A program made the translations under genes and the position numbers. Positions 5,189 to 43,594 of a DNA stretch of 64,000 bases are shown here, in pieces. Numbering within the stretch: position 1 is the first letter of the stretch; each line of letters begins with the position of its first letter. The DNA is from Blasia pusilla (taxonomy: Eukaryota): NCBI GenBank assembly GCA_050084515.1, contig CM114271.1:9734001-9798000 (forward strand), written 5' to 3'. The notes below the pieces were generated by a model, which was not told the origin of the DNA, ran no database searches, and saw nothing but the letters and a program-made list of their open reading frames with translations.

Positions 5189-6318
5189 TCCAAGAAGATT
5201 CCAACTGGAGGACACTGAGAATGAGAATGAGAATGAGAATGAGAATTTTTAATTTATAGTGAATAGGAAAACAGATACTCCTGACAGATTTTTACTGACA
5301 AGATGAATTCGGTGGGTGACATTGTCTGACACAATGGATCCAATTCTCTAACACATTCAGTTCTGTTCCAATATGTTACTGGATTTGGGAAGCAGAGGGT
5401 TGCGAATCACACTTGGAACCCGTCGGAGTCGTGGTAACTCAAAATTACCCGGCTAACGGCGCAACCCGTCGGCCGGATCGTTGCACGTCGCCAAACATTG
5501 TCGAAGCGAGCAACCCGTCGCTCTCCGACGAATTGCTCAGATACCGCTCCTTCTTGCTCGAAGATTCCGGAGGCGTGCAACCCGTCCCCCTCCAACGGGT
5601 TGCGCAAGGGCCTCACCTTGTGGTGCTTACATGAAGTGTGCAACTAGCCGGACTCCGACGACTTGCACGGGAAGCCCACGTTCTTAACCCTTGATGAGGG
5701 AATCGTGCAACCCAACGGCGGTCTCGACGGATTTTCTGGTACGCCCGTTCCGCCCCAAACACGGCGGAGGCGCGCAACATGTCGGTCTCCGACGGGTTGC
5801 GCGGGTTCCTCGCGTTCTTTTCCGAAGACGACGGAGGCGCTCAACCCGTTGGTCTCTGACGGGTTGCTCACGCACGTGGCGACGTACCCAGAATGGCGGA
5901 GGCGCGCAACCTGTGAGACTCCGATGGGTTGCCATTTTTCACCTCCAGACTTCCGTAACCTCCGGCATGTCGCCGTCGAAAGGACGACGGGACTCAACGG
6001 TCAGCCCAACGGCTAAAAAAGTATAAATAGGGCAGAAATTGCTCATTTCTGGTTTCTCATTTCACGATCTTCATTCCTCGATCTCTCAAAGAAATTGATC
6101 GATCTGAAGGGGCGTTTCACACGGCGACACATCGCGAGTCGATAGGAGGGAACGAGAGCGAGACGGTTCGACCGAACGACAGCAAGACGGATTGACTGAA
6201 CGATCGCGGGACGATTCGAGCTACCCATCAAGGCAATTCAAGCTTCCCATCTCGACATCAGCAAGGCGACTGATCAAGGGATTCGTCGTGGACATAGGTG
6301 GAGGCATTTCCAGAAAAA
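5189..6318. promoter_or_regulatory. Divergent promoter region between transposase and gene B, with palindrome cluster
   Basis: TATAAATA at 6022-6029 (also 60350-60357 and, reversed, 1354-1361); reverse-strand TATAAA near 5252-5257 beside (GAGAAT)n; multiple palindromes at 5417-5932. Confidence 0.65.
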
Positions 6319-7290
6319 ATGACGAGGAAAAAATCACAAGCCAAAAAGTCTGGGAGCTTCACTCCGAAGTCTATTAGGACTCCTGCGTCAGCATCTCCTG
6401 GGCCTCGTTCGGCGAATGAAATTAGGCAGCAGGAAATCGAGGAGCGGGAAAGGGAAGCGGAGATGCACAACCAAGTGCTTCTTGCGAGACATGTTCAAGA
6501 GGCGCTCGATAAACAGAACGCAGAGGTTGAGACGTTGCAGGCCTTGAAGAAAAGGATCGCCAACGAAAAGAGAGAAAAGAAGCGTCTGGACGCGTCGGTG
6601 ATGAGGGCAGAATTGGCTAAAGCGAGGAGGGAAAAAGCGATAGCCATTGACGATAGCCCTGCCCGTCCAACCAAAAGTGTTGAGATGCGGGAAATGTCCC
6701 CCATGAAGTCCAGGGACACAATCAACATAGTGGAAACGCTAGAAGTTGAAATCGATGACGACGAGGTCATGAGGAACGCCAGCGTGGAGATGGTGGACAT
6801 GGCCGAAGAAGCCGAAGAGCAGTCATTCTCGACTCCAAGCCCGGCGGAGGACATCGACCTCTATCGGATCGACGAGTTCCCAATCGATTTGCCAGCTTCT
6901 GTCAAGAAACCGACCCCATTTTCGAGCGGGTAAGAGAGGATCTGGGTTTTTTGAATTATGTGAATTGCAATTCATTGGGGATTCAGTGTAGCTTATTCAT
7001 CTTGTCCCGGTTCTGACAGGTGGTAAAGCAGATGGCACTCATGGAGGGCCACAACGCCCCGAGGATTCCACTCTGCCGATTGCGGACAATGGAATACGTC
7101 CGCGAAATTCAGTCCGACGAGGACATCGCGAAGCTTAAACAATCGGCAGAGACAACATCCTACGTCGACAGCTTTCCTCCCTTCTATGTTCAGCCTTACG
7201 ACGAGCATGGAACCCAAGCTCTGGTTAAGGAGGAGGACTTGGAAAAGCTCGACACATTCTGGAGGATGCGAGACGAGGATTTCAGAAGGC
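6319..7290 (+). pseudogene. Gene B exon 1, intron 1 (6930-7019) and partial exon 2
   Basis: MTRKKSQ... charged, coiled-coil-like N-terminus; GTAAGAG...TGACAG intron conserved in all copies; truncated before WDGNHR. Confidence 0.85.
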
Positions 7291-8262
7291 TAAATGTCTA
7301 AGTGTAAATAAGAAACACTTAGACATTACATATAGTCGAAGACTTTTTTGGCGCCGCTGCCGGGGAAATTTCGACCACCCCAAGGAGAGACGCCACTGAC
7401 TGCTTGATGAGCCGCTTCAAGACCTGATTCGGCGGCGCCAAAAAAGTCTTCGACTATATGTAATGTCTAAGTGTTTCTTATTTACAGTCAATTGTAGAGT
7501 TCGATCCCCAAGAGGATCATTGTTGGATGAAAAGAGAGTATAAAGTGATTATTATGTTGTAAAAGTAGTGTGGTTGATTATGTAATTCAAATGTAGTATT
7601 CGAGTTACATCTTCCGATCCTTTTTAGTACCTATGTTTTCTTCTTCAATTCTCTCGAGTGGAATTTAAAGTACGCTCAGGAAATTTGTTCTCTCGACATC
7701 TTGGAACTTCACAGAGACCTCAAGAATAAAGTTGGCTTCTCCTACTTTCGGAACTTAATCCGTCTGGGCAGGTTACTTTCTATCAAACAGATTTCATACA
7801 ACTCTATGTTGATTATTCCATTGATGAGAAAGGTTCGCCTGATTCATTCTTCACTCGGCAGATCCAAAAAGAATATTCAGACATAAGCCTCGCACATCAG
7901 AATGAATGAATAAGTGCTTTACTACTCCATCAAGAATTGGAAGACTTCAAAGTATATACAAGCTCGAGAGGGTACAACTTTCTTGCTCGGACCATTCCTA
8001 CAGCATAAGGACTTCATGAGCGAATGATCATGATAGCTTCTGTCTTGTTTCTTAAATATTCTCGAGAGTAGGAGCGTTTCTATGATCCGAAGCGTTCTTG
8101 ATGAAGTTGGTGTCTCTTCAATATCTATAACTACCTAGATCTATGGTGTGCGTTCCTTTTCCTATGATCCCTGTGAATCCGCGGTACAAACCATAATGTA
8201 CAAGAGTCTTTGTTCAATAAAAAAATACATTTCTTCCAAAGTACAAAATTGTGGGTATCACA
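7291..8262 (-). mobile_element. Internally deleted LTR of Athila-like family A with a fold-back LTR-end/PBS junction
   Basis: Ends ...GTGGGTATCACA at 8262 (reverse complement of LTR start TGTGATACCCAC at 32188); PBS TGGCGCCGCTGCCGGGGA at 7349-7366 and an inverted partial copy at ~7432-7440. Confidence 0.9.
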
Positions 8263-9186
8263 TTGTTTTTTGCCGAAAGCAACTCGTCGGACTCGACGGG
8301 TTGCTCGACTCGACGCTTTTTCGGATGTTTTTAAGAATGCAACTCGTCGAAATCCGACGAGTTGTTCGATTGACCACAGATTTAATTAGTTTTTGGCCCA
8401 AAGCAAACCGTCGGAGTCCGACGGGTTGCTCGACTCGCCGCCTTGTCAGGATGTTTTTTTGAAGAATGCAACTCGTCAGACTGCGACGAGTTGTTTGACT
8501 GACTGCAGGTTTAGAATGTTTTTTGCCCAAAGCAACCCGTCGGAGTACGACGGGTTGCTTGCCTCGAAGCTGTTTTTGGCCAAAATCAACCTGTCAGAGT
8601 CCGACGGGTTGCATTCGGAAGTTGGTTCCCCAAATTTTGCGTCAAATTGTAGGTTTCCATTCAATTGCGCAACCTGTCAGACTCCGACGGGTTGCTATGT
8701 TCACGTTAGTATATTTAGTTGCACAACCCGTCGGAGTCCGACGGGTTGAAACCAGGCATTAGCAAATCTGAATGCAATCCGTCGGACTCCGACGGGTTGC
8801 ATCATTTAGCTCGTTGCTAGAATCCGACCTTGAGCTGTGACGACCCGTCGGAGTCCGACGGGTTGCAGGAACCCATGTAATTTCCTGACGGGTTCAGTTT
8901 GGATGTGCAAGATTGTATCGGAGGGGAATGTCACCCACCACTGGATCCAGGATTGCGATCGGGTGAGGAAGGTGCTTACGACGCACCCGGGAGAGTACAG
9001 GGGGTTCTTGTGCGATGCCCTTGTCAATCAGATGCTTGCAAAGGGTGCTCAGATTAAAAAGAAAACTTGGGCAAATAAGTTTATTTCCCAAGATGCAGCC
9101 GTAACCATCCTTTGCTGGTCGAAGATACAGGCCGCGAAGAAGAGCGCTGCACTGGAGTTGGAGCGGAGGGAGAAGGTATCTGCGTC
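8263..9186 (+). mobile_element. MULE-like element fragment: gene B intron 2 (palindrome array) and start of exon 3
   Basis: Colinear with 61950-62875; about ten palindromes at 8279-8866; IVSEGNVTHHWIQDCDRVRK coding. Confidence 0.9.
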
Positions 9187-9589
9187 GAGGTGCGGTAAGA
9201 GGAGAGGAAGAGAGGAAGAGAGGAGAGAGGAGAGAGGAAACTACCTTCAACCGAAATAGATAATTTTTTTTGAAGAGAGTTTCCGTTGGGTTTAAGAGAG
9301 GAAACTTTTTGTGTGAATATTTTTGCACTTTTTTGTTCATTTATTAAACAATCCCACAGTTTTTTTTTCCTCTTCCATATTTTGGCAACCCCTGTGAGTC
9401 CGACGAGTTGCAAATTGCACAAAATTTAGAAAATTGAAAAATCAGTGGAATCATAAGTGTGGAACCAATCACTTTTTCCATCCAAGGTCTGGAAAAAATC
9501 TATCATTTTCCCCGGGCTGAAAAGAGTTCAAGCTCAAAGTGAAGGTTGAGGAAAAATAAAAGTACAATCTAAAACCTCATTTTGCATCC

Positions 9590-12500
9590 TCAAAGTGGTT
9601 TGTTTAAAATACTTCGCACTTCTTTGAGGGATGGGGTGGTTGGTGGATTCCTACTCCTACCTCCGACTCTCTTAAAACTACCAGCAACACATAGTACATG
9701 TGCTTACAAGGGAAATACCTTTTGCCACTTGTCTCTCTTTGGACAAAGTCATCACATCAACATGTGGGAAAGCAACAAATGTGCACCACATACACCCCTG
9801 TGACACTTGAATTTACAGTGTTGATCCTGACCCAATACATCCTTCCTATTCGATTGCCACTCAAGACATCTTTCGTGGCGATGATCTCCATTTTTGCCTC
9901 CCGAGCTGATGCAATTCGCTTTGCTCTCTCCACCGTTGGCCTACACATTCTGTTTCTCTTCACCCCATTTCTAGACTCAAACAGAAATAATGGATTAAGA
10001 TCATCCACTTTCTCCGGGTACATGTTGACATCAATCTTGGGTTGAATACGAAATGCGAAGGTCTCTGTAATGCGAACATGCTCCGAACTTCCCCCGTCTA
10101 CGAGTTTGAAACCGGCACTTGTAAGATTGTCCACTTCGTCTTGAGTGCAGTTTGAGCGATGGGCCAAATCGTGGGGGTATTCCCCGGAGCTCCAATCGCA
10201 GCCGAATAAGACTTCCGAAAAGCGCAAGATTCATTTGGGCAGAAGAAGTACTTCAATTGATCCCCGGTCCTCGTGAAACGATCAAAGGTTTTGAGTCCCC
10301 AAAACCCAGGCAGAGGTCGTCCAGTCCTTGTACAGTTCTTATTTAGGAAAGTGCCGCATGCTCTCCTAATGCCATCAGATCCTGCCCTGCAAGTGGGTCC
10401 ACGTCCTGGGTTGCTCCGAGATATATGCCACCATTTTAGGTTGCAATCCACCTCCATTACTGGAATCCCATATTGTTGAACCACCCCAATGACAAGATGT
10501 TGCGAACTTCCAGCAACGGAGGGCTTTTGAAATAAAAGATTCACTGATTTTGGAGAAGTAACTCCATCACGGATTTGGGACGGGTCCGGGGTCCCCGAAT
10601 TCCTGGGCGGTGTAATTTCCTCATCCAAATCAATCACCGGATTCATTCCTCGATGTTGCCTCTTCACCTGCCTGAAGTCAAGATACTTATCTGGTCTCCA
10701 CGAGTCTCGTTCGGATCGCTCTACCACCATCCAGTATGGGGACGTCTTGAAACCCGCCAGAATATCCCCACCAATGTGTACGTCTTGCTCGAGTGGAGTT
10801 CCAGCTACGCACCGGTTGAAGGCTTCGACATACAATTTTTCATCACCAGATCTCACAGCCGCCCTGACATAGAGCTCGTAGATCGACGGCCCTTTTCCTT
10901 TTGTTATGCCTTTTGTGAGAAAGATATGGGATGCTGCAGACTGTAGCATTGCTCTTGCCTGGTCTTGTTGGCATGCCTCCACAAGTGAAATTCGTTGGCA
11001 TGCTTGTGACGACCTCCAAGAGGAATGAACACTTTCTGCTCCACTTGTGTTGGGGCAGAGGGCATTTTCATGAACGTTCAATCCCTGCAACGACGGCAAT
11101 GTTAGAAGGGAACGAAAATAACCCATGAGTCAAAAAAATAAGCGACCCGTCGGAACCAGACGGGTTGAAGGCCCGAGTCATCCCATGAACGACTCTGCGA
11201 CCCGTCGGGTCCCGACGTGTTGTAACCTTAAACCCACCTACTACAACCCGTCGGAACCTGACGGGTTGCAAGGCCGAGGCATCCCATGAACGACTCTGTG
11301 ACCCGTCGAGTCCCTCGGGACGACACCAAACATCTGGATGCAACCCGTCGGTTTCCGTCGGGTTGCACCCTTGGGCAACCCGTCGATTTCCGTCAGGTTG
11401 CACACTCGGGCAACCCGTCGGTTTCCGTCGAGTTGCACACTCGGGCAACCCGTGGGTTTCCGTCGGGTTGCACACTCGGGCAACCCGTCGCATCCGACAG
11501 CTTGCTTGGTTTCTTGGGTTTGAAATCCATATCATTCCCACGCTTCTCACCCTAAGCTACAACTTTACAAACAATTCTCAGCGTGAGCTTGACAAGACAA
11601 AATAGTGAACTCACCTGCCGCATGAAGTTTCCCCATTGTCTCATACGTACAGTCCACCAACTCAACCAAGAGCACAACTCTTTGTACTTCCCCTCAATCG
11701 CATGCTTCCTCCACCACCCATGAAGTTCTTCCTTGCACTCCATGGCCTGCTTCAAGGTTTTGCTGTCCTTGCAGCGTTGGAGTAGAGTGACATGCTCTGT
11801 CCTCTTATTCTCCTTGATGCAAGATTTGGTGTACCGGGTCACAGACTGTTGCCAATTGAAAGCATCCGACCTTTCCCTTTCAGGTTGAACCTCTCCAGCC
11901 CAGAACACTTCCCAAATAGCAATCCACCCAGGTTGTGCATTGTCCGCCATGAACCCATAAATTTCTGGAGGTGGCCTTTTGTTTTCCTTCACCACCTCCA
12001 ATAAGAGTAACCAACACATCTTCAAACTCCCAACATCTTCTGCCTTTACTTCACACACAAATATAGTTTTGAGTCCCTTCTCCACATGGTCATAAACGTG
12101 AGCACCCATTGTCAACCATCCGTTCAGCACTCTGTAGCAAATATCAAAGCTTACCCAGCTCCCGTAAAGATCTTCCCCTTCCCTCATTCGATCTATAAGA
12201 TCGAGGCCACTCGACGGACCTGTGGTTGACATTTTGAAGACATAGGCCCTGGATCCCTCGCCTCCTTGGCCCATGAACTGCCATCTCTGAATGAATGGAA
12301 ATCTGGAGTTGGCCTTGATTCTGGCGATGGCATCCATTTCGGCCGTCTTTCCATCCTGAACTCGTATCTGACGCAAAAAATTTCGGAAGCATTCAGGATC
12401 AGCGAGAAATGCGAGATTTTCCCATAGTTGTTTCTCCTCAACCGCCGTGATCTCGCCCTGTCCAGCGATTCCAAGCAATTGTTCACAAATTTGTGATGCC

Positions 12501-13087
12501 GTTGTGAGCTTGATTACCCCGGGCTTTGAACCCGGAGAGTTTCTGAAGACCTCGGCTACTTTCTTCGCCACATCCTCCTTGATGTGTCTTTGAATTGCAT
12601 CGGTCACAGGATGAGTGTGGGAGCCAACATGAACTGCCAGCCTTGTATCCGCTTAGGTTGATAACATCCGGAATCTCTTCAATAAGAACAACATTGTTAC
12701 GAGTGTGCGAAGTTGGAGTCGAAGCCGGATCTGCAGAGCTTGGAGTTGCAAACGTAGAGCTCAGAGCACTAGGAAATTCTAGACCGTCTACTTGGGAAAC
12801 AGACGAATTCAAGGGCAGGCCGTAAACTCTGTATTGACCATTTGCGCGGTGTAGGAGATTCCATACTTTACTGATCGAGGTCACTGGCTGGACCGTCTCA
12901 CCTATTATGTCTTCGTACCTTCCACCTAATATCTTTGGATACAAAGATGGTTCCAATTGAAGAAGAAATCGAAGACAGAAAATTTTCATCCTTTGCTACG
13001 AAAGACTCACGAGCTTGGGGTCGAATGATTTTGATTGAGGAAGGGCCATGGATGACTGCCACAAGTGAGCTTAACATAATTATCCAT
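9590..13087 (-). pseudogene. Mutator-like transposase with C-terminal SWIM finger; intron 11085-11614; GCM-like domain deleted
   Basis: SFDICY / FMADNA / TSGAESVH triad intact; SWIM-type CxC...CKH remnant at ~9700-9765; stop at 9590. Confidence 0.85.
11340..11506. repeat. 35-bp tandem expansion of the palindrome unit in the transposase intron
   Basis: Unit starts at 11340, 11375, 11410, 11445, 11480. Confidence 0.9.
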
Positions 13088-13228
13088 TCCAAGAAGATTC
13101 CTACGGGAGGAGATTGAGAATGAGAATGAGAATGAGAATATTTAATTTATAGTGAATAGGAAACAGATACTCCTGACAGATTTTTACTGACAAGATGAAT
13201 TCAATGGGGGAGATTGTCTGACACAATG

Positions 13229-16094
13229 ACTTGGGAGCTTCACTCCCAAGTCCATTAGGACTCCTGCGTCAGCTTCTCCTGGGCCTCGTTCGGCGAATGA
13301 AATTAGGCAGTAGGAAATCGAGGAGCGGGAAAGGGAAGCGGAGATGCACAACCAAGTGCTTCGGCGAGACGTGTTCAAGCGGCGCTAGATAAAGCGTAAC
13401 GAAGAGGCCGAGACGTCGCAGGCCTTGAAGAAAAGGATCGCCGACGAAAAGAGAGAAAAGAAGCGTCTGGACGCGTCGGTGAGGAGGGCAGAATTGGCTA
13501 AAGTGAGGCGGGAAAAAGGGATAGCCATTGACGATAGCCCAGCTCGTCCAACCGCAAGTGTTGAGATGCGGGAAATGTCCCCCACGAAGTCCGGGGACAC
13601 AATCAACATAGTGGAATCAACACCAGTTCAAATCGATGACGACGAGGTCATGAGGACCGCCAGCGTGGAGATGGTGGATATGGCGGAAGAAGCCGGAGAG
13701 CGGTCATTCTCGACTCCAAGCCCGGCGGAGGACATCGACCTCTATCGGATCGACGAGTTCCCAGTCGATTTGCCACCCCTATCTCGACAAGTTAGTCGTG
13801 GTCAAGAAACCGACTCCATTTTCGAGCGGGTAAGAGAGGTTCTGGGTTTTCTTAATTATGTGAATTGCAATTCATTGGGATTTCAGTGTAGCTTATTCCT
13901 CTTGTCCCGGATCTGACAGGTGGTAAAGCAGATGGCACTCATGGAGGGCCACAACGCCCCGAGGATTCCACTCTGCCGATTAAGGACAATGGAATACGTC
14001 TGCGAAATACAATCCGACGAGGACATCGCAAAGCTAAAACAATCGGCGGTGACAACATCCTACGTGAACAGTTTTCCTCCCTTCTATGTTCAACCTTACG
14101 ACGAGCATGGAACCCAAGCTCTGGTTACCGAGGAGGACTTGGAAAATCTCGACACATTCTGGAGGATGCGAAACCAGGACTTCAGAAGGCAAGTTGAGGG
14201 CACGGAATTCAGCTAGATGAGGAATCTGCATTTCTTCATCTGGGATGGAAATCACAGGTTCATGGCGTGGACCAAGTTTGCGGAGGAGCGCCCAAACTCA
14301 TTGGAGGCACATTTCTGCGTGAAGGCAGTGGTCCTTCACCCATACCCTCATCACATGGCGACGGTGGAGATGGAAATGCATGCCATGAACACGTAAGTAT
14401 CTTTAACACTTTCGCAACTCGTTGGACTCCGACGAGTTGCTCGATTGATGAATGGGTTAGGTTTGTTTAGGCAGAAAGCAACTCGTCGGACTCCGACGGG
14501 TTGCTAGACAACACGGTTTTCCGGATGTCTTTTTAAGATTGACACTCGTCGGACTCCGACGACTTGTTTGATGGAACATAAATTTAACTAGTTTTTGGCC
14601 CAAAGCAACCCGTCGGAGTCCGACGGGTTGCATTGGGGCAAAAACCTTCTAAACCTGCAGTCACTCGAGCAACTTGTCGGAGTCCGACGAGTTGCATTCT
14701 TAAAAAAACAACCTCACAAGGTTGCCTATCGAGCAACCCGTCGGACTCCGACGGTTTGCTTTGGGCCAACAACTAGTTAAATCTATGTTCAATCATACAA
14801 GTCGTCGGAGTCCGATGAGTTGCAATCTTAAAAAAACATCCAAAAAAGCGTGCAGTCCAGCAACCCGTCGGAGTCCGACGAGTTGCTTACCTGGCATTAG
14901 CAAATCTGAATGCAACCCGTCGGACTCCGACGGGTTGCATCATTTAGGTTGTTGCTAGAATCCAACCCTGAGCTGTGACGACCCGTCGGAGTCCGACGGG
15001 TTGCAGGAACCCATGTAATTTCCTGACGGGTTGAGTTTGGATGTGTAGGATTGTATCGGAGGGGAATGTCACCCACCATTGGATCCAGGACTGCGATCGG
15101 GTGAGGAAGGTGCTTACGACGCACCCGCGAGAGTACAAGGGGTTCTTGGGCGATGCCCTCGTCAATCAGATGCTTGCAAAGGGTGCTCAAATTAAGGAGA
15201 AAAGTTGGGCAAACAAGTTTATTTCTCAAGATGCAACCGTAACCATCCTTTGCTGGTCGAAGATACAGGCCGCGAAGAAAAGCACTACACTGGAGCTGGA
15301 GCGGAGGGAGAAGGTATCTGCGTCTGAGTGCGCCAAATTCATCCAAGCTGTTGTATCTACTGCAACGAAATACACGGCGAGCAAGATGCAGCGATACATC
15401 AGCATTCTCAACCCCGAACTTGGTCCGGAGTTCTACAAGGAGCTCAAGGCGATTATCACGCGTCAACGGAAGAGGGATGAAGATCCGCATGGTCGGATTG
15501 GGGAGAAAGTGTCGCTGGATCGCGTGCATCGTTTTGCGTTATCCGGGATTAGCGAGTTCAGGAGGATACGACTGATGAAAATCAGTCTCGAGGGCTCAGA
15601 GGCCCAGAAGAGGGCGGCACACCATCCTCCGGGTGTGTCCGATCCAGTGATCTCGCATTGGCTACGCGAATGGTCGTTCTGGGACGCGTTGCGGGTAATC
15701 GGGAAGTCCGTGCTGGACGGTCTGCAAGCGGAGCTCAGAAGATTAGAGCCCATTCCGCCGGAAGCAAACCTTGAAAGTTCTGGAGATTACGAGGTTTGGC
15801 TCAACGACATCCGGGACAAGCCAACCAAGAACCCAGGATTCAAGACCATGTTCAAGGTTTGCGTCCTCCCTCAGGCAGTAGAGGGTAGAGCTTGACGAAG
15901 AAGTAGAGGGTAACAAACGGGATCAAGCGAAGAAGAAGCGAGATCTACAGGAGCAGACGGCCGATAGTGTTCGACTAAAAGCTGCCCAACGGATGGTATT
16001 CAGGTACCTCATCCAGTGTAAGAATGCAGGTACGTGGGGAAAATTACCGGCAGCCTTGAAATTGTGGGCTTCGCCGCCGGATGCAGAGACATTC
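13229..16094 (+). pseudogene. Gene B exons 1-3 (introns 13830-13919 and 14393-15048) with ParB/Srx-like motif
   Basis: TGGGATGGAAATCACAGG (WDGNHR) at 14241-14258; GT-AG introns restore the frame (AC|G ATT GTA); in-frame stops; cut by LTR at 16095. Confidence 0.85.
14414..15004. repeat. Phased palindrome array in gene B intron 2 (63-64 bp period)
   Basis: Starts at 14414, 14478, 14541, 14605, 14669, 14733, 14797, 14860, then two more. Confidence 0.95.
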
Positions 16095-17118
16095 TGTCGT
16101 GCGCCTACTCTCCTTGAACGTTAATCTTGTTTGTTGCGGAAGCGTGCGTTCAGTAAGTCACGCTCTCAACGCTGATCTGCATCCAAACACGCACGCCGGT
16201 TAGTCGGGTCTTGGATCAATCAGCGGGATTACTTTCCGAGTTCTCGTCTCGGACTCTCTCTTCAAGCTCAACCTTCCTAGTTTCGCGGTTTCCAACACGG
16301 GCAAGTCTCAAAGACTTGGGATGAGACTTTTCAGTCGGTTCGGGGAACTGAAACGGCGTTTCGCGCCTAGCGGTTCCAACTGTCCGATGAACATCCAATG
16401 AGTTCCTCACCAAGACTCACACGAAGTGAATCTCGGTTGGAATCCAAGTGTGGCGTACAAAGTCCACTCCCTTGGATCAGGTTTGGCCGGGTTTCGCGCC
16501 AAACTCCCGTTTCATCCCGCCTCAAACGCCGTTTGGCGCCCAAAGTGAGGTTTCGTTTCCCGAGACATCTCAGAGAAGGTACTCCCCTTACTAGTACTTC
16601 TGGGGATCTCCGGGGGCCCCCTACATTTAGGGAAAGACACCCGGGCCCCTCCAATTGGCCCTCAACCCGATTGCTCTCTGAATCGTTTTCGGCCAATATG
16701 TCAGCCTGTACTTATGTGTTTGCTAAGATCTTTGGTGCGTTGGAAGCGTCTCAAGATCAGCTTTCCAACGCGCCCTTACTTGTCCCGAACGCATCTCGGA
16801 GCTCAACGTTATGGTCCTAAACACAGTCAGATTCTCCCAAACGCTAGCCGTGTTCCAAACTGGTTCTCACCTCTTTGGCAACCAACCTCCAAGACTCAAC
16901 TCATCTCAAGTCTCGGCTCGCGTTTGGTCTAGGTTTCCTGGTCGCAACCACTAACGCATGAAACGCACAACTCTGTTCCACGTTTCGTCTCTTAGACTTT
17001 TCCAAGAGACTCTTCCAAACGCCTCTCCAAAGCGCAAACCTCGCGGCGTGAGTTCCTTTGAGTTCTGATGTTTCGCTTGGCGCGTATTTGGTGTTGTTTG
17101 GTTATGAGGGTCGCGACA
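16095..17118 (-). repeat. Chromovirus 3' LTR (~1024 bp)
   Basis: TG...CA termini; reverse-complement match to solo LTR 29247-30271. Confidence 0.95.
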
Positions 17119-17808
17119 CTCACTCCTCCTTAGAAGGTTGATGTCCTCATCAACGCAAACCTTATTGATGTTAAGTTCTGGGAAGCCGACCCCTTAACAC
17201 GTAATCGCGTTCGTAGCTAACCCGCAATTCCTCTTTTTGGCTTAAGTCTTAGGTTTGTCGCTTAAAGACTTAGACTTATTAGCTTCGCTTTCGATGAGCT
17301 TAGACTAGTTCTGCCAAACGAATCTAACTATCAAAATAAGCTCACTAAGTCTGCAACCTAACACTTCACTCACTATTTGTAAACAACCGCCTGTCTACCT
17401 AGCCAACTCTTACTACTTTTGGGTCACCTGTATTCCACCTAGGCGCGTCACTAAGTTCAGTCATGAAACATGAATGAGATCACCACAAACCCCAAGACAG
17501 ACTCATCTGCCCCGCCGACGTTAGGGCGAGCCCAAATGCTAGTACTTCAACACTTGGTCCTGATCTAGATGCCTTATCTGAATACAAGCTCTCACCTCAA
17601 ATACTCATTGTTTGGTCTCCTTGACTTACATCCTAAGCATATGAAGAACTACTCATTGCATTGCACAAACCAAACTCAAAATTACAATACAAGCATCGAA
17701 TCTCCGAATCCATGTCTTCTTTATTGCAACAACTAAACCTTTCTAGTTACAACGGGTTATCGGCCCAAGCTTTCCGGTCACAAGTTATGTCCATTGCTTC
17801 ACCATGTA

Positions 17809-19087
17809 CTAACGCACGTGCTTTGCTTGCATCCATCTGAAGTCACGCAATGCTTCTTGCGCATGTTCTAGATCCGCCTCCGCAATCCAAGTCGCCTCTT
17901 TCACATGATAGCCTTTCCACTTGACCAAGTACTCGACTTGGTGGCCCTACGCCTGGAACGCAGAATAGTCTCAACCTCAAACTCTGGTTCCTCATTTCTG
18001 ATGACCGGTTGTGGTCTCAACATCCTCCTTCGCTCCGGACGCACATTGTCTTGAAGATACTTCTTCAATAATGACACATGGAAAGTCGGGTGAATCTTGA
18101 ACTCGTTTGGCGGCTCCAACGTGTACACATCCTCAAACGGCCTTGCCTTGATCACATACGGTCCAAAGATACTTGGGCGACAATTTATAAACAATTCTTT
18201 CGGAAGAGTGAGATTCTTAACACTCAACCACTGTTCCCCAACTTGAAACTCACATGGCGCCGACTTTTGTTAGCATGCTTTACGCATACCTTAGTTGAGC
18301 CTTGGCGAGACTTTTCTCTCGCTTCGCTCTTGTCGTTCCTACATTTCCACTAACAAACATTCCGCCGTTGCTTGACGAGTGTGTGTCGATGTATTGCCCT
18401 TCGAAAGAGCTAAGTCAAGAGGCCCTTGTGGTTCTCTTTGATACGCTGAAGAAACAGAGATTCTCGGTTGCGAGAATGCTTAGTCGAGTTGTAACAATAC
18501 TCAGCCATACTTAACCACTTGGCCCAATCTCTTTGGTCCGCACTCACGTAATTCCGTAAGTATTGGTTTACGACCGAGTTTTTTTTTCCGTTTGCCCATC
18601 CGTTTGAGGATGGAAGGCCGATACTAAAGCCGAGTTTGGTCGGAACCTCCTGAATAGATGTTTCAAAAGGCACCGTAAACTTCGGATCCCGATCGGACAC
18701 AATGCTCCTAGGCAATCCCGGCGCACGCCACCAACCATCCAGGAATAGTCGGAAGTCGCAGAGGGTCGCGCGACTCTCTCGTCGGCACAAACCTCCCCAA
18801 CTTGCTAAACCGATCAACTATCACAAGTATAGCGTTGTATCCTCGATTCGAAGACTCGTAATGAAATCCATGCTAATGCTTTGCAAGGGTCCCTCGGGAT
18901 TGGCAAAGGATGAAGTAAACCTTGTTTCTTCGCATAAGACACGCGGTTCGCTGGCGCAGTCACACATGTTTTCACATATTGAGCAACATCTTCCTTCATG
19001 TTGGGCGGAAGAACCTCTTAGACAAAACAAAGCAAGAGTGGATTTCTCCCCTTTGTGTCCCGCCAAAGGTCCATCATGACATTCCAC
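17809..19087 (-). pseudogene. pol: Chromovirus integrase plus chromodomain, heavily frameshifted
   Basis: HDGPLAGH, SISMDFIT, SIVSDRDPKF, GPY, IHPTFHVSLLK, EFEVETIL...EYLVKWKGY...ATW. Confidence 0.9.
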
Positions 19088-19090
19088 AAA

Positions 19091-20759
19091 CGCGGAGGCG
19101 GAATCGTCCGGACGAGCAGGGAGAGAGGGTCAGACCAGGTCCTCGGCGAAGAAAATGCCACCAGAATCCGAGGTCATAGAAACCCCGACAAGCCGTCCCA
19201 GACTAGGAGAAGCGGAAGCGAGAGGTGCCTGAGTTTTCCCAAGGAGAATACAGACCCATCATCCTTGGGAAGACACAGACAAACAACGACCGGACAAGCG
19301 TCCTCCTTCGATTCACCTCTTTCTTTGGATAAGTGCCGACTTCACTTCTCAGCGTCGACAATTGCCATCGAAAAATTGACAACGCTGGGACGGAAGCTCC
19401 AACGAAACGGGCACGCTGCCTGGACGGTGAATGGAGTGGTGGAAGAGGTTGCGGTGGATCTCTTGATTGCCGATCTGCCCTCGGGGTTGCGACTTTGGGG
19501 CGAAAATCCGCGGACGAGGTACCCGAGTGGAATCTGCCGCTCACTTATGACCAGATTGCACTTTTGTTCTCCTTGCGAGATGCCTATCCGAGTGTGAGGG
19601 CTGCTTCTTGGTGTTGGACTGGAGGGAGCGGGCGAGCTCTTCAACCTCCAGTGCGTCAAGAGGTTGCTAAAGTGGAGGACGGCACAATCATGGATCATCA
19701 AAAACGAGTACCCACTCCGATCCGCAACGAGTCAGATTCGGGTAAGGCTCAATTCCTGTACAATAATTTCAATTATCTTATAATGATGTGTAGAATGAGA
19801 GTCAGTCTGGGTTTTTTCTGTCCGTGAGCAACCCGTCGGAAGGCGACGGGTTGCTGGCTTAGAGCAGCCCATGCTCGGATGAGAGCAACCCGTCGGTTTC
19901 CGACGGGTTGCATCTTTCCCACATACAGAGGAAAAACCGCGGTGTACCTGCAACCCGTCGGAACTCGACGGATTGCAGTTGATTTTGGTTTTTGGATGCA
20001 ACCCGTCTAATAGCGACGGGTTGCTCTCAGGCGAGCATGGGCTGGTCTAGGCCAGCAACCCGTCGCCTTCCGACGGGTTGCATCTGAAAACCAAAATCAA
20101 CTTGGAAAACCCAAAAGCAACTGCAACCCGTCAGGTTCTGACGGGTGGGTCCGGGACAAAACAACCCGTCGGACTCCGACAAGTTGATCCAAAGTCAGTT
20201 ATTGAAAATCTTCTCAAGACGACTTCTTTAGTTTCTGACATTGTTTCGTGCTGATTTACAGATGGACCACTCCTACGTGTACTGCTTCGTTTGGCCCGAG
20301 CACAATTTCCAGGATCTTGTGGATCCATGCTCAGATGGATACAGCTTAGATAGTTTGTACAATTCTCCCCCGGGAATTTACATGCAAGACAGTACCCCGC
20401 TTTTGGGAGGAAGGGAAAAGTCGCCAGCCCTGATGCAAACGCTCTTCGAGCTCTGCTCAAGGCCGGGTGACTTGGTGTTCGACTTAGTGGGCCTTTCAGG
20501 GGCGAGTATCAGAGGCGCCTGGCAGAGTGGCAAGAACATTCTCTGTCTTGAGGGAAGGCAAGAACTGTTTGACCTTTGCAAGGAGGCAAAGGCAGAATAC
20601 GAAAGGCTCGTTGGGGCGTACAACTCTCCACCGAAGCCGAGAGCTCCGGTTCCAGAGCCACCCTTGGTAGTGACTCCATCGTCACTTCCAACGATTCCCA
20701 AAATCGGGAGGGCAAGGCCGAAAGTGATTTTGCAAGAGCTCTCGGACGATGACGAGTGA
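19091..20759 (+). pseudogene. Gene B 3' part: beta-class N4/N6 DNA methyltransferase-like domain; intron 19742-20261
   Basis: Start matches gene B of other copies (63965-64000; 46245-46300 reversed); VDLLIADLPSG at 19454-19486; EKSPALMQTLFELCSRPGDLVFDLVGLSGASIRGAWQSGKNILCLE in the last exon 20262-20759; GTAAGG...TTACAG phase-0 intron; several frameshifts in 19091-19741. Confidence 0.75.
19828..20187. repeat. Palindrome cluster in the methyltransferase-domain intron
   Basis: Seven copies at 19828, 19885, 19950, 19998, 20055, 20123, 20161. Confidence 0.9.
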
Positions 20760-21234
20760 GTCCAAAGAACTCAACGACCCAGCTTGACTGCAGCGTTTGG
20801 AGTAGGGACATTTTTGATAATTTGGCAAAAGATTTCATAGAATAGATCAAATGTACAGTTCCGAGCTTTTTTCGGATGATATAAAGCAGAAGATTTGTTC
20901 GATCGATGGTGGTGCTTGTAAATGTTTGGTGATCATTTTGTCTTTTCGAATGTGATCGTCTATGTACTCCACGGTCTTCTACTTTGCAACCCGTCGGATT
21001 TCTCCTGCTTGCAATTTTCACTTTATGACCACTACAACCCGTCGGATTTCTCCTCCTTGCAACTTTTCGCTTTTTGACCACTGGACCCTTTTTACCACCT
21101 CCAGGCAACCTGTCTGATTCCGACAGGTTGCCTGATCGGACCCTTTTGGATCAGGCAGTCTGGCAGGCTTCTTCCCTTGGCACCTTCCCCTCAACTGGTA
21201 AAGGCAGGCGTAGGCTTCTTTTCTTCTCTCAGAC

Positions 21235-21555
21235 GTGTTGGATTCCTTCTACCTGTGCGGTTTCCATAGTGGTATTACCGGGGACGGAGGAGATATTGAT
21301 ACTGGATGGGTGTCACATTGCAAAGCGTACAAGGTATACTGCCGAGGAAGGCGGTGGGACTCGAGACAGGTTACATGGGACCGTTATGGTGTACCTAGGG
21401 GGGGGCCAAGGCTCTCGAATTCGCCAACATTTTCGATCCCCGTCTACAACCGGCCAGAGGAGCCACTTGAATCCCAAGACATTCCTTTGGTATTGTCACC
21501 GAGGAGAGTTAGGAGTAAATTTGTAGATGACGAGGCTGAAGAAATCATAGACTAG
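21235..21555 (+). CDS. Possible third element gene or terminal exon, unknown function, acidic C-terminus VRSKFVDDEAEEIID
   Basis: Preceded by a pyrimidine tract and CAG at ~21230; C-terminus and stop position conserved in the diverged copy at 54902-55020 (-). Confidence 0.4.
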   Translation: MLDSFYLCGFHSGITGDGGDIDTGWVSHCKAYKVYCRGRRWDSRQVTWDRYGVPRGGPRLSNSPTFSIPVYNRPEEPLESQDIPLVLSPRRVRSKFVDDEAEEIID

Positions 21556-21660
21556 GTTCAATGTACATTTGTGAGGTTCCTTCGGAGGTAATAAAGGACG
21601 AGATGTTTTGAACCCATAATGGTGTTTGTAAAAGTTTTCTGGAATATGTTTTTGGACTTG

Positions 21661-22310
21661 TGGAGGTGGTGCAAGAGAAAGGCCCAGCAGCAGGTTGTCC
21701 AAGAACAAGTCAAGAAGATTGTACAAGGTGATAATGCAGCCAAGTCACTCCATTGACCTCAAGCCTAGAGGAGACAAGGGAGATGGTGTAGGCACTAGGG
21801 AGTCTCCAGGGTATCCAATGAAGGAGATAGAGTGCTTGATTGCTGTTGTAGAGGAGGGTTTGAACCAAGGGGGTGGATCTGATTGTTAGGGCCAAGAAAT
21901 GAAGAATAAGGGGCTAAGAAGAGGTCAATGGAGGCTGAGCTCAAATGCTTGGACTCTTGTGGGCTAGAAGATTCCTCATGGAAGCCTAGAGGACCTCATT
22001 TGAAGGCCATAAAGCTTGAGAATCCAAGGGAGAGATCTATGGAGTTGAGAGGATCCAAGGAGTGATTTCTGGAAGATTTGTGCAGGTGGAGCTAAGTGGA
22101 GGTGTGAACTGAGGGCGGGGCTCGAACCAGATTGAGAAGAAGCAAGCATGGGAAGAATATAGAGGTAGATCTCACCTTCAAGCATGTCCAAGAGACAGGT
22201 TGAGCCTATGCCATCAATATTGCTCAAGAGGCTTTAGTTAGGGCAGGTTCAGAAGTAGATGAGGTAGAAATTTCACGCAGTAGATGCCTTGGAGTAGATG
22301 CTTAGGGTTG
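21661..22310 (+). mobile_element. Fragment of LTR-like sequence of gypsy family C
   Basis: 21935-22307 resembles 44505-44862. Confidence 0.7.
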
Positions 22311-22369
22311 GCATCCGGGTGGTCCTCCAACAAAAATACCAAGGGCATTGCTTTTGGTTGACCAAGATG

Positions 22370-22615
22370 AGGAGATGTTAGGAAACTTAGGCTCACATGG
22401 AGAGTGATGGAAAAATGTTTGTAGTGGTCTTATGATGTCTACTTTTTTTTCGCCCCAAGGAAAAAGGAGGTTTTTTTAGGGCCAAATGTGGACCACTACA
22501 TACTCTCTTCTAAAGATTTCATGGATTTGAAAGCAAACAAAAATTTCAAATATGTCATAAAGTTTTGAAGAGAGGAGGCAGATTTGGCCTTTTTTTTTGA
22601 AGAGAGACTCTCCTC
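22370..22615 (-). repeat. Dispersed AT-rich repeat, probably a subterminal part of the MULE-like family
   Basis: Reverse complement of 52900-53145; end also resembles 54375-54400. Confidence 0.6.
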
Positions 22616-23049
22616 TTCTTTTTGGGTCTGCCGAGTGAAGAATGAATTAGGCGAACCTTTCTCATCAATGGAATAATCAACATAGAGTTGTATGGAATCT
22701 GTTTGACAGAGAGTAACCTGCCCAGATGGATTAAGTTCCGAAAGTAGGAGAAGCCAACTTTATTCTTGAGGTCTCTGTGAGGTTTCCGAGATGTCGAGAG
22801 AACAAATTGCCCTGAGCGTACTTTAAATTCCACTCGAGAGAATTGAAGAAGAAAACATAGGTACTAAAAAGGATCGGAAGATATTACTGGAATACTACAT
22901 TTGAATTACATAATCAATCACACTACTTTTACAACATAATAATCACTTTATACTCTCTTTTCATCCAACAATGATCCTCTTGGGGATCGAACTCTACAAT
23001 TGACTATAAATAAGAAACACTTAGACATTACATATAGTCGAAGACTTTT

Positions 23050-23067
23050 TGGCGCCACTGCCGGGGA
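23050..23067 (+). other. Primer binding site complementary to the tRNA-Asp 3' end
   Basis: TGGCGCCACTGCCGGGGA versus the Athila-type TGGCGCCGTTGCCGGGGA. Confidence 0.8.
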
Positions 23068-23572
23068 TCATATCCTTGGCTGAGAAGGGAGAGAAAGACC
23101 CACGGGGAAGCAGGGAGCGGAGAAAGAAGCTTCGCCCCTAGACGACCCCACATTCTAGTTCTTACTAATGACCATCGGCTAGCTCTAGCGACCCCCGTAA
23201 GACAATGTATGCTTGAAGATAACAATACATTTGCTGCATTGGTGCTAGAGAAGATAGACCAACTAATTAGAATGGTCAAAGAACCAGTCGCCGAATGGTG
23301 CTTCGCCCATGGACGATAGTTGTACTTGGTGAAAATCCGTTACTTCTGTTTATGGGAGGAAAACCTGGCAAGAAGCGTAGGAGCACCAGGCACCCTCCTG
23401 TAGATGTAAAAAGAATCAGTAGTTAACCTCCCTCCATGGACCCTTACCCTATCGCCACCGTGGGGGTGAACGCAAGTTGCCAAATCCCACAAGAGACTTA
23501 TGGAAGGCTCTCAGCCCTCTTCGCGAGAGCAAATGAGTTGATCGGGTTGAAGCAGCGAGAATAAAGAACGGC

Positions 23573-25427
23573 TTGAGACCGCCTGGTTCGTCTCCAAGTC
23601 TTCGTCCTCGTCCGAAGGCGAAGAGCAAGAAGAAGGAAAGGGACAAATTCTCCACTACGTCCCCTGCCAGTTCGCAGTCGGACGAAGAGTCGTCATGGGA
23701 CCCCTTTGGGGAGTCAGGGATCGAGGAGCCGATCAGAGCACCTCGGTCGGCACCTTTACCTCCTCCCTCTCGAGCATCAAGCCCGAGAGCCAGCAGGAGA
23801 GCAGTTCCCATGGCCAACACTAGAAAAACTCTGCTAAGGTACCCCACCTTTGCTGAGGGACGACGAGACGATGTGGATAACTTTGTTCTTGAATTCACCC
23901 ATGTCGCAAAAGCCAACGGGGAAGGGGCAGAGGAGGATTTGTTACAAGTCTTTCCGGGCCTGCTCAAGAAGCGAGCAAGCCAGTGGTACGAAGGTCTCGG
24001 AGCAAAAGTCACGGAAACCTGGAAAAGGGTCTTGGAATCCTTCCTATATGAGTTCCGCGACTTGGAGTTCGAGGACATGCTTCTTACAAAGCTTCGCGAC
24101 CTGAAGCGAAGAAAGAAGGAGACCCTCCGGGAATATACCCAAAGGTTCCGGAGCCTTGTGAATAAGCTGGAGCACACGACTACCTCCCAATTGGTAGATT
24201 GGTTCGTGTCCGGCTTGTCCAAAGAAATGGATCGGTATTGCCGGAGAGGCCAACAGGATTCCCTGGAGGCGGTCATAGCCTCCGCTGAGGCGTATGAAGC
24301 CTCAGAAAAGTCCCGCCAAACACGAAGACGGCGTCACCAATGGAGAGGGGCGTCGCAGACTAGTGCTTCGTCCGAAGACGAAGCGTCCTCCACAGACACG
24401 GAATCCTCTACGGAGGATTCGTCCGAGTCCTCGGACTCGGAGCAGGAGGTAAAAGCTAAAAGGAAAGGGAAGAGCAGGCATCATCGCTCCCCCAAGCACC
24501 AAGCGTCGTCCTCAACGGTCGGAAAGTCCAGTAAGAGGGACGGCAAGGAAGGCCGGCAAGTCGGCCATGGAGGAACTCAGTAAACAAATGGCTGAGTTGA
24601 AGGTACATCTGGAGGCCCAGAAGGACCCAAGGAGACGACCCGGGCTAATGAGGCCACCCATTTGGTGTAGTAGTTGTGGAACCCTGGGGCATACAGTACA
24701 AGAATGCCCTACTCTGAGGGATCTACGGTGGATCCAGGAAGAGGCCCCTATTGAAGAAGGATGGTATGAACCACAACAGTGGGAAGGGTGCTATGCCGTC
24801 CAAGCGGTGCCACCCCCAAACCTTGGGAGAAGCTGGATCACGCGGTATGTACCTCCGGAATTTGGAGAACAGAGACCCCTGAGACAGATTATGGGTGCGG
24901 CGGCCTTCACGCCACCCATCAAACAAAATTGTTGTTATAACTGCTGCGCAGCAGCCCATTGGGCCAATAATTGCCCAAACCCGAAGCGACCAGTGGGACT
25001 CAATCCCTTATGCGGGAACTGCAAGAAGGGCGGGCACACTGCCGTGGAATGCCTGGAGCCCAAAGTTCTGCGTTTGTTGGTCAGATACGTAAATACTTTA
25101 GCGGCTCAATCAGAGCCCAAAAATGATGTAAATGTACAACTGGTCCGGGTGGAAGAAGTAGTGTCCCCGAGACCAAAGCGAGTCACCATCAGTGAGGAAG
25201 ACTCGATCGAAGGGGCCAACGAGGAATCATCGGACTGGCCCAAAGAGTTCCAAGAAACTGTGTTTGCGGTCACCATGAGGTCGAAGAGTCAGACCGCGGG
25301 GATCCCAAAGGTAAAGAAGGGTGCTTCGTCTTCGCGCGAAGCTAAGGAGCCCAAGAACAAAGCTGTGAACACCTTACGTGCCGGGAAGGCCATCCTCAAA
25401 GGCGATGTGGACCCGGCCTTTGACTGA
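23573..25427 (+). pseudogene. gag: Gag with three CCHC-type zinc knuckles, frameshifted
   Basis: ETLREYTQRF capsid-like motif; CSSCGTLGHTVQEC, CYNCCAAAHWANNC, CGNCKKGGHTAVEC. Confidence 0.9.
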
Positions 25428-25556
25428 AGTCATCCGAAATACTTCCATCAGGATGTAGAGGACCAGATTCGTGCTCAAGTTTGTGAGGACCAGGAACCAG
25501 AGGGGAAACGGACCCCAGAGAAGACAAAGGCCAAACCAAGTACGACAGTCCAAGCC

Positions 25557-43454: not shown

Positions 43455-43594
43455 GCATGCTCTCGGGGCATTCGCAAGGTGGCCGTGGGATTATGTGCGC
43501 CCCTTCATAAGTGGCTCCCATGGGTGTTAGATACTTTTGGGACTCTAGTTAGGTGAGTAGAAGGAGCTAGAACAACAATCTGCAATTTAAATGA

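Follow-up and report, generated by a model that had tools for sequence, protein, structure and literature searches.

A DNA transposon in Blasia pusilla with arrays of a 27-bp palindrome and a conserved accessory gene that encodes a methylase-like domain

A 64,000-nt stretch of the Blasia pusilla genome (contig CM114271.1, positions 9,734,001 to 9,798,000), here called the window, contains repeated copies of one DNA transposon; counts given below refer to this whole window unless another source is named. We found that the element pairs a transposase gene with a divergent, intron-bearing accessory gene, gene B, and that its non-coding DNA is packed with a 27-bp palindrome. The best explanation of these features as a whole may be that the element family consists of large cut-and-paste DNA transposons of roughly 15 kb, in which gene B reads the palindromes and carries a methylase fold that no longer works as an enzyme. 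We give this account an even chance of being right. Judged from sequence, the element is real. Gene B is a candidate reader of the palindrome, the ParB label for its N-terminal domain is a lead only, and its methylase domain is probably not an active enzyme.

The palindrome, GCAACCCGTCGGANTCCGACGGGTTGC, is GC-rich and specific to the element. A pattern scan with CAACCCGTCGGNNNCCGACGGGTTG, allowing at most three mismatches, gave 76 matches compared with none in 100 shuffles. All 76 lie inside the element and occupy the same positions in every copy. At the same threshold no match was found between 21131 and 47714, the stretch that holds the long terminal repeat (LTR) retrotransposons, and the pattern scan found none in the foreign DNA that interrupts one of the copies (16095-19828). 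These results support the original prediction that the palindrome fills the non-coding parts of the element and is absent from the LTR retrotransposons. Allowing at most two mismatches per half gave 83 full sites. In 80 of these the spacer is 3 nt long, and the consensus of the 80 is the 27-mer GCAACCCGTCGG-A-N-T-CCGACGGGTTGC. The sites form arrays with units of about 35-67 bp: they recur roughly every 64 bp in intron 2 of gene B and every 67 bp between the two genes, and the transposase intron has spacings of 55/46 and 35 bp. We place arrays inside introns because canonical GT-AG boundaries flank them and are conserved even in the most diverged copy, copy d. Mismatches to the consensus number 160; C-to-T and G-to-A changes make up 101 of them, and 56 of those 101 fall in the four CpGs. 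This excess suggests decay of methylated cytosines, short of proof. The palindromes are probably binding sites of a dimeric protein.

The element lies in repeat-rich, eukaryotic DNA of about 48% G+C. A self-blastn of the window recovered five copies or fragments of it (a to e) plus end fragments (Table 1). The repeated element that had been predicted is therefore real, but it is present as five copies and end fragments rather than six clean ones. In copies b, c, d and e the transposase (-) and gene B (+) are divergent, which agrees with the predicted arrangement. Inspection of open reading frames (ORFs) and alignments showed that every copy is damaged by stops, frameshifts or truncation, and all copies within the window are dead. 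In copy d, WDGNHR is replaced by SGGKHK. Copy c has lost its left arm, because its first base is the equivalent of 55031 in copy e.

The element most likely ends near positions 52897 and 22620. The segment 52897-53144 at the left of copy e is an inverted copy of 22620-22372 at the right of copy c, with 86.8% identity over 250 bp. The match breaks off at the same nucleotide on both sides, although the flanks are unlike, one being a truncated copy d and the other an LTR retrotransposon. More inverted patches occur inside both arms, so the ends are inverted arms of about 250 bp or more. We estimate a full length of about 15 kb, inferred across copies, as no single copy has both ends in the window. 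The range originally assigned to the element, up to 21660, stops short of the likely right end near 22620 and includes the foreign DNA by which copy c is broken. A simple terminal inverted repeat at 21425-21653 was rejected, since this segment carries the transposase C-terminal exon (...FVDDEAEEIID) in inverted orientation and 22620/52897 make a better terminus. Separately, a 171-bp segment of the left arm beside the palindromes (54069-54239) is an imperfect reverse complement of itself (76%) and could form a long hairpin.

Gene B was modelled from GT-AG sites and homology. Intron 1 is 60 bp long and its acceptor CAG ends at 13919. The WDGNHR motif occurs at 14244 (+) and 24 (-), near the N-terminus as had been proposed. 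The earlier model of four exons was right in that the gene bears introns with conserved GT-AG sites, but four is an undercount for the intact gene because copy c lacks the exon for the first half of the methylase domain. About 200 residues of this half, including motif IV, have no counterpart in the window by tblastn; copy c is broken at 16095-19828 and the other copies stop earlier.

Relatives of gene B were identified by searching 1.84 billion representative proteins with the last exon, and then with a profile of exon 2 and two homologues. The last exon retrieved three relatives only (P0005, P0006, and P0007). Two named homologues, both uncharacterised, extend along the whole of gene B: P0010 from the moss Ceratodon purpureus (hypothetical protein M758_1G295400, 1147 residues, E 6e-49 to the exon 2 profile), which shows the complete architecture, and P0014 from the fern Adiantum capillus-veneris (GOP47_0024647), a full-length search match. 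In tblastn, P0010 matches exon 2 in five copies (6e-17 in copy c) and the last exon (6e-9), P0014 matches exon 2 and exon 3 of copy e (62845-63711, 2e-8), and P0007 matches the last exon (2e-10). P0005 matches exon 3 (pairwise 2e-4) and the last exon (1.7e-10). These four proteins match exons 2, 3, and last in order. Since P0010, P0014, and P0005 map to its exons in the window, gene B is a member of a real three-part family with an N-terminal IPLCR...WDGNHR domain, a middle domain of about 400 residues, and a C-terminal permuted beta-class methylase fold. The family is rare, with named members in a moss and a fern and otherwise metagenome loci.

The position of intron 2 is old and conserved. 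Related loci have a gap of 73-92 bp at the corresponding protein position, and four homologues (P0009, P0011, P0012, and P0013) end exactly at the exon 2 boundary (...AM..(I/W)N(K/S)). Only in the element of the window is this intron filled with a palindrome array.

Comparison of copy d with the other copies indicates that gene B has been under selection. The ratio of nonsynonymous to synonymous substitution rates (Ka/Ks) is 0.16 for exon 1, 0.10-0.12 for exon 2, and 0.16-0.26 for exon 3 of gene B, and 0.35-0.57 for the transposase. Values of 0.10-0.26 imply that gene B was retained as a protein while it was carried by the element, and purifying selection on it has been at least as strong as on the transposase. 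The original prediction of an intron-containing accessory gene that belongs to the element is supported, and the gene is real and conserved.

The predicted methyltransferase-like C-terminus is weak when judged from the last exon alone and solid when judged through relatives. The last exon matches Pfam N6_N4_Mtase (PF01555) with E 0.057 and 13.8 bits (cut-off 26.7), at profile positions 165-220 only. Its best match among PDB sequences is M.RsrI (E 0.04, over the QKP...DxFxGSG region), and it matches PHROG DNA methyltransferases at 6.8e-4 and 0.0022. P0010, to which the last exon is clearly related, scores 30.4 bits against PF01555 and exceeds the cut-off, with residues 903-1119 aligned to profile positions 2-217 of 221. 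P0007 scores 24.5 bits (E 3e-5, profile positions 2-212) and matches phrog_67 at 8e-9, and for P0010 the matches include a type II methyltransferase of PADLOC (1.1e-6) and CcrM of NCBIfam (0.0047). Motif IV precedes motif I in the permuted order, as shown by the collinearity of P0010 with the profile; the same order is seen in a metagenome relative (L012). The gene B family would therefore qualify as PF01555, a similarity on which the original prediction depended, with the window copy holding the C-terminal half only. We regard the C-terminus as a bacterial or phage-type beta-class amino-methylase domain, as judged from these matches. The methylase search matched 270 phage records at E up to 1. 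Closest to P0010 and P0007 among phage and plasmid methylases are short proteins that stand alone and have no ParB; the phage ones are about 240 residues long.

Is this domain a working enzyme? In canonical amino-methylases, motif IV reads (D/N/S)PP(Y/F/W) and the motif I that binds S-adenosylmethionine (SAM) reads FxGxG. The canonical motif IV is present in none of the seven relatives that include this region, and the aromatic residue is missing from six of them. Motif IV reads DTPF in P0010, DAPE in P0005, DPPT in P0007, DFPT in P0014, DIPE in L012 and L038, and DVPS in L064-L066. The family motif is thus D-x-P-(E/T/S/F). The Asp and the second Pro are conserved in 7/7, which indicates that the methylase fold is maintained. 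Motif I in the window reads DLVFDLVGLSGAS (GLSG), and relatives have DLSASTGAS, DWSANTGAS, or a loop with NASTG; the second glycine is retained, but the first has shifted or disappeared. Because motif IV is non-canonical in all seven relatives that include it, the domain is probably inactive as a DNA methylase, a conclusion we hold with somewhat better than even confidence, and P0010-like members are the likeliest exceptions. A separate candidate for motif IV, LWASPPDGE in exon 3, was rejected, since its counterpart in P0010 and P0014 lies in their middle domain and outside their methylase domain.

An alternative is that gene B encodes an active amino-methyltransferase that writes N6-methyladenine or N4-methylcytosine at or near the palindromes. 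The fold belongs to the beta class of DNA methylases, two motif IV residues are universally kept, and P0010 retains the aromatic residue. Moreover, eukaryotic PF01555 enzymes can be active, as the accessible parts of the reports on Marchantia DN4MT1 (10.1101/2021.02.12.428880) and rotifer N4CMT (PMC8885841) describe. However, the active Marchantia enzymes have TSPPY according to the same part of that report (10.1101/2021.02.12.428880), a motif of the canonical type seen in none of the seven relatives, and the SAM loop is altered to SASTG, SANTG, or NASTG in relatives and to GLSG in the window. We consider an active enzyme distinctly unlikely, and self-marking of the element by methylation, as the original prediction suggested, is unlikely given the motif IV of all seven relatives.

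We favor a model in which the palindromes serve as dimeric protein-binding sites and gene B would be their most likely reader, through its degenerate methylase fold or through its N-terminal or middle parts. Methylase folds are built for reading short, often palindromic sites. Since the canonical catalytic and SAM-loop residues are lost, the fold in gene B would most likely act as a DNA-binding module that reads sequence or flips bases, rather than as an enzyme. The WDGNHR domain may be a nucleotide-binding switch of the ParB/Srx type. By this mechanism, gene B would be drawn to all the non-coding parts of the element that carries it, and would thereby control the chromatin state of that element, its expression, or the transposition complex.

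Several findings weigh against this model, and we gather them in this and the following five paragraphs, together with observations in its favor that bear on the same points. The first group concerns the WDGNHR domain. An alignment of 14 sequences reads FF(I/V)WDGNHRxxAW, in which G, H, and the AW pair never vary, while W, D, N, and R each reach 90% conservation or more. Box II, or the P-motif, of the ParB/Srx superfamily is of the GxxR type and often reads DGxHR, and we take the WDGNHR of gene B to resemble it. The ParB-like assignment of the original prediction nevertheless found no match in any profile test, and only the DGNHR motif and a language-model neighborhood point to it. No ParB profile was matched in Pfam by 10 family members at E up to 10, and there was no ParB match in NCBIfam, PADLOC, or PHROGs. 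Searches of PDB sequences with WDGNHR-domain profiles of 5, 10, and 14 sequences gave no match. Comparison of the domain by hhalign with two plasmid F ParB proteins (SopB and the leading-region ParB) gave a probability of <1%. No relatives of exon 2 were found in prokaryote or viral contigs. A PF02195 search of five phage records gave no matches and did not recover the control loci either, and a viral-contig search with plasmid F ParB returned 4 relatives only, 3 of them at 93-97% identity. AlphaFold2 models of exon 2 reached a predicted local distance difference test score (pLDDT) of 32.6 alone and 37.1 with a 5-sequence alignment, too low for use.

The language-model neighbors of the WDGNHR domain (queried with P0008 and with window positions 1-351 (-)) were DUF6551 and ParB_N clusters at 0.89-0.90 and DUF3723 at 0.92, the last in 9/30 matches. 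A ParB/Srx fold for this domain is a lead only, and we see the chances for and against it as about equal. As a separate observation, DUF3723 is described, in the accessible part of the source, as a conserved cargo gene of fungal Starship giant transposons. Its place among the nearest neighbors points to a possible link between two transposon-borne families.

A second group of findings concerns the methylase-like exon and the transposase. The methylase-like exon is present once only in the window, and its link to exons 1-3 is made by order, strand, shared palindromes, and homologues. The exon with motif IV is absent from the window, which leaves this element's own motif unseen, and P0010, with DTPF, could be active. 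The transposase belongs to no curated class: Pfam at E up to 1 gave no family for the best ORF (2887-4593, 568 residues) or for its only two database homologues (P0001 and P0002, 36-39% identity). The best NCBIfam match, ISL3 at E 0.036, is too weak for use, and a PDB sequence search gave no match. The SWIM profile (PF04434) matches an exon of copy e (55426-55776 (-)) weakly, with E 0.009 and 16 bits against a cut-off of 19.6, and a CxC...CxH pattern is visible there. Alignment with P0001 and P0002 revealed conserved acidic positions (WVSFD, GFMADNA) and a Cys/His-rich N-terminus. We read the protein as a transposase rich in Cys and His, whose core is DDE-like and whose finger resembles SWIM. 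Of the predicted GCM-like/DDE/SWIM architecture, the SWIM part thus finds weak support, but GCM-like and DDE find none in the databases. Because the transposase matches no curated family, the label "Mutator-like" is an architectural guess. Mutator-like elements (MULEs) are marked by long terminal inverted repeats and a 9-11-bp target duplication, and the inverted end structure of copies e and c described above is in favor of the label. A side observation concerns the relationship of the copies: the transposase motif SDAFH, with H in P0001, P0002, and copies d and e (52330-52950 and 57172-57816), reads SDAFN in copies b and c (2887-4593 and 11552-12652), a shared substitution that makes these two copies close kin.

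A third group comes from other genomes, where the evidence points both ways. We scanned metagenome contigs, many of them too short to judge, with the WDGNHR-domain profile and grouped loci at 95% identity; the 61 loci related to gene B form 36 groups. The gene pair that the original prediction proposed to look for elsewhere was found, with a homologue of the transposase on the same contig in 5/36 groups. Eleven groups include 5 kb or more of upstream sequence; the transposase is upstream and divergent in three of them (L031, L041, and L053), and a transposase of the same family was not found in the other eight. A methylase domain lies downstream of the WDGNHR domain in four groups. Related loci contain 43 tandem arrays, and five of these, in four loci (L008, L017, L033, and L043), have a significant palindrome unit. 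These units have arms of 10-13 nt and were reached by at most 0.01 of 300 shuffles, with L013 borderline at 0.017. Each of these palindromes is different in sequence and is located beside gene B, and the L033 array has a period of 64 bp, as in the window. The exact palindrome of the window was not found in the metagenome contigs. A significant palindromic array is therefore present in only 4/36 locus groups, and the association of gene, transposase, and palindrome array recurs in other genomes but is far from universal.

These counts bear on another explanation, in which gene B is a captured host gene or fragment in the style of Pack-MULEs, or a mere neighbor, and the arrays are functionless satellite expansions. 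The eight related loci without this transposase fit this view, as does the degenerate state of all window copies. Moreover, the moss homologue belongs to a cluster of two sequences and sits on a chromosome-sized contig, which could mean that it is a host gene. However, the Ka/Ks of gene B between subfamilies indicates selection during carriage by the element, and the divergent gene pair is found in three independent locus groups. In-frame stops interrupt the WDGNHR domain in 24/30 representative metagenome loci, as in decaying repeats, and the palindrome has the same positions in every copy and occurs nowhere else in the 64 kb. We therefore consider a captured or bystander gene very unlikely.

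The final group concerns the identity of the palindrome reader, which could equally be the transposase. Between copy d and the other copies, Ks is 0.9-1.8 for gene B (74-77% DNA identity) and 0.31-0.43 for the transposase (84-87%), although values of Ks above 1 are saturated and Ks is inflated by CpG decay. Since Ks is so much higher for gene B than for the transposase of the same copies, the two modules differ in their history, which suggests that subfamilies have recombined or exchanged modules. Copy d retains the same palindrome despite its diverged gene B, and the sites thus track the transposase better than they track gene B. The main rival to our model is that the palindromes are transposase binding sites spread through the element and that gene B has another role, for example in chromatin or DNA modification. 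Subterminal repeats are bound by the transposase in En/Spm, Ac, and Mu. The Cys/His-rich N-terminal module of the transposase is suited to DNA binding, and palindromes are also present in subterminal positions (53751-54267 and 20987-21130). On the other hand, introns and the promoter region hold most of the arrays, which are thus internal rather than subterminal. The arrays of L008, L013, L017, and L033 lie beside gene B with no transposase match on the contig, a weak point as these contigs are short. The Ks pattern gives this rival real weight, and we rate it as a serious minority possibility.

Table 1. Coordinates of the copies, genes, and palindrome arrays of the element (positions count from the first base of the window; gene B exons and intron are those of copy c)
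Feature	Position	Strand	Remarks and basis
Copy a	1-1549	(-)	Inverted fragment; gene B exons 1-2 only; WDGNHR intact at 24 (-); self-blastn and motif search
Copy b	about 1560-9195	(+)	Transposase ORF 2887-4593 (568 aa, longest); gene B start codon 6319; self-blastn
Copy c, left part	9187-16095	(+)	Element resumes at 19828; self-blastn
Transposase gene, copy c	9400-13230	(-)	Several exons; DDE-like core ORF 11552-12652; SWIM-exon remnant 9757-10230; ORFs and alignment with P0001 and P0002
Palindrome array, transposase intron, copy c	11143-11505		8 sites; spacings 55/46/97/35 bp
Gene B exon 1	13232-13859	(+)	Lys/Glu-rich; start codon seen in copy b at 6319; donor GTGAAT at 13860
Gene B exon 2	13920-14392	(+)	IPLCR...FFIWDGNHRFMAW (FFIWDGNHR) domain; one in-frame TAG in copy c; homologues P0008-P0014
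Gene B intron 2	14393-15048	(+)	Palindrome array; GTAAGT donor and CAG/TAG acceptor conserved across copies c, d, and e
Palindrome array, gene B intron 2, copy c	14415-15003		9 palindromes; 64-bp period
Gene B exon 3	15049-16095	(+)	Middle domain; frameshift near 15890; cut off at 16095
Foreign insertion in copy c	16095-19828		3.7 kb, outside the element; repeat shared with 29247-30271 plus LTR-retrotransposon integrase fragment
Integrase fragment in the insertion	17901-19130	(-)	SH3_Tf2-1 match 2.2e-8
Palindrome array upstream of gene B last exon	19829-20186		7 sites
Gene B last exon	20262-20759	(+)	After TTTACAG acceptor; ends TGA; C-terminal half of beta-class N6/N4 methylase-like domain
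Right arm, copy c	20829-22620		Patches are inverted copies of copy e left arm; palindromes 20987-21130; likely terminus 22620
Palindromes 3' of gene B stop codon	20987-21130
Copy d	46084-52861	(-)	Inverted; diverged subfamily, 74-87% identical to other copies; self-blastn
Copy e	52897-64000	(+)	Leaves the window at its edge; left side most complete of all copies
Left arm, copy e	52897-55031
Palindrome array, left arm	53751-54267
Transposase, copy e	54902-59358	(-)
Palindrome array, transposase intron, copy e	57064-57314
Palindrome array, divergent promoter/intergenic region, copy e	59726-60194
Gene B, copy e	from about 60700
Palindrome array, gene B intron 2, copy e	61965-62553

Other repeats share the window with the element. 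A solo LTR of about 730-760 bp is inserted in gene B of copy b (~7291-8265), and this LTR is also found at 22616-23056, 32628-33340, and 37198-37947; the same LTR-retrotransposon family occupies 22616-26351 and 33888-37638. A Ty3/Gypsy-type retrotransposon at 39051-44161 (+) has gag, protease, reverse transcriptase, and integrase ORFs, as judged from ORF translations alone, and a partial internal duplication (42885-43198 and 43592-43908). This retrotransposon accounts for the strong G-over-C skew at 38-46 kb. GA-rich tracts of the GAGAGG type occur at the junction of copies b and c (9187-9195), at the likely left terminus (52861-52900), and in the left arm (53814-53907 and 55031-55136). The 9-bp overlap at the b/c junction looks like microhomology-mediated joining.

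Why might a transposon carry such a gene? VANC proteins of the Arabidopsis VANDAL Mutator-like elements are accessory anti-silencing proteins that recognize motifs repeated in the non-coding DNA of their own element, and both motif and protein vary by subfamily. VANC, SET, and TET/JBP proteins are examples of transposon-borne chromatin factors. Few transposons are known to encode a factor that recognizes their own DNA: VANDAL elements do so through VANC, and red-algal elements with PAG genes, discussed below, do so by proposal only. The Blasia element resembles VANDAL elements in combining an element-encoded accessory protein with repeated motifs in the non-coding DNA of the element. In this comparison by description, the Blasia motifs differ in being 27-bp palindromes in regular arrays inside introns, and we know of no methylase fold in VANC; an anti-silencing role for gene B would be pure inference. 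The same logic may operate in another lineage, represented by a moss, a fern, and many metagenome contigs. If gene B reads the palindromes, one protein and one 27-bp site would form a testable pair for studying how transposons escape or steer plant silencing, and a methylase fold would have been reused as a DNA reader. Our results also offer a handle on an unannotated plant gene family, recognizable by its IPLCR...WDGNHR domain, followed by a middle domain and by PF01555 with D-x-P-E/T in the motif IV position. Literature searches, outside Repbase, Dfam, and preprint supplements, turned up no account of the gene family or of the element from land plants.

Bacteriophages offer a second comparison. 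Phage and prophage fusions of ParB with an N6_N4 methyltransferase have an N-terminal DGxHR-type domain followed by a permuted beta-class methylase, according to the accessible parts of two reports (10.1101/2025.10.10.680097; PMC4738411). Gene B has the same domain order, and the nearest PDB and PHROG matches of its methylase are bacterial or phage. However, unlike the fusions as described there, gene B has no ParB profile match, about 500 residues between the two domains, introns, and a non-canonical motif IV. A third comparison is with Marchantia MpDN4MT1a/b (10.1101/2021.02.12.428880) and bdelloid N4CMT (PMC8885841), which the accessible parts of their reports describe as active, with TSPPY/SPPY kept. 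Like gene B, these are bacterial-type N6_N4 domains in a eukaryote that are tied to transposons or to genome methylation. In contrast to these enzymes as described there, the gene B family has D-x-P-(E/T/S/F), contains other domains, and is transposon-borne.

The closest described system appears to be the PAG cassette of red algae. In the accessible portion of a recent preprint, Plavaka, Mutator, and Zisupton elements of Bostrychia moritziana are reported to carry PAG2, which combines PF01555 with SET, and PAG3 (10.1101/2025.02.11.637652). PAG3 has an N-terminus that is ParB-like by HHpred (e-value 0.29), followed by a 2-oxoglutarate (2OG) oxygenase, and tandem inverted-repeat arrays adjoin it; the authors propose that the protein binds and modifies its own element (10.1101/2025.02.11.637652). 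The claim that the Blasia combination is new was therefore overstated, since this preprint already reports analogous transposons. As far as that portion of the preprint goes, the two systems share a PF01555 gene, a weakly supported ParB-like part, and arrays of inverted repeats beside an accessory gene. The likeness is one of described features, and the red-algal elements belong to another host lineage and have another transposase. Unlike in PAG2 and PAG3, Pfam found no SET or 2OG match in the gene B exons, P0010, P0014, or P0005.

These comparisons invite a joint reading, in which gene B would be a eukaryotic, transposon-borne counterpart of ParB-parS that descends from a phage ParB-methylase fusion, with the palindromes as parS-like sites. 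Its WDGNHR domain, as a nucleotide switch, and its methylase fold, dead as a catalyst but able to read sequence, would load on the arrays. The protein might spread along or bridge the element, and might shield it from silencing or hold its ends together for transposition, while the palindrome would co-evolve with it in each subfamily, as the differing palindromes next to relatives elsewhere suggest. Such a module, hitherto undescribed, could be widespread in bryophytes and ferns and might share ancestry with PAG. We think this extended scheme unlikely, though worth stating. In the red-algal cassette, as the accessible portion of the preprint describes it, the two domains lie on two proteins, whereas in Blasia the WDGNHR domain and PF01555 lie on one. 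What our analysis adds is this fusion of a methylase fold with a DGNHR domain on a single protein under selection, together with palindrome arrays that extend even into introns.

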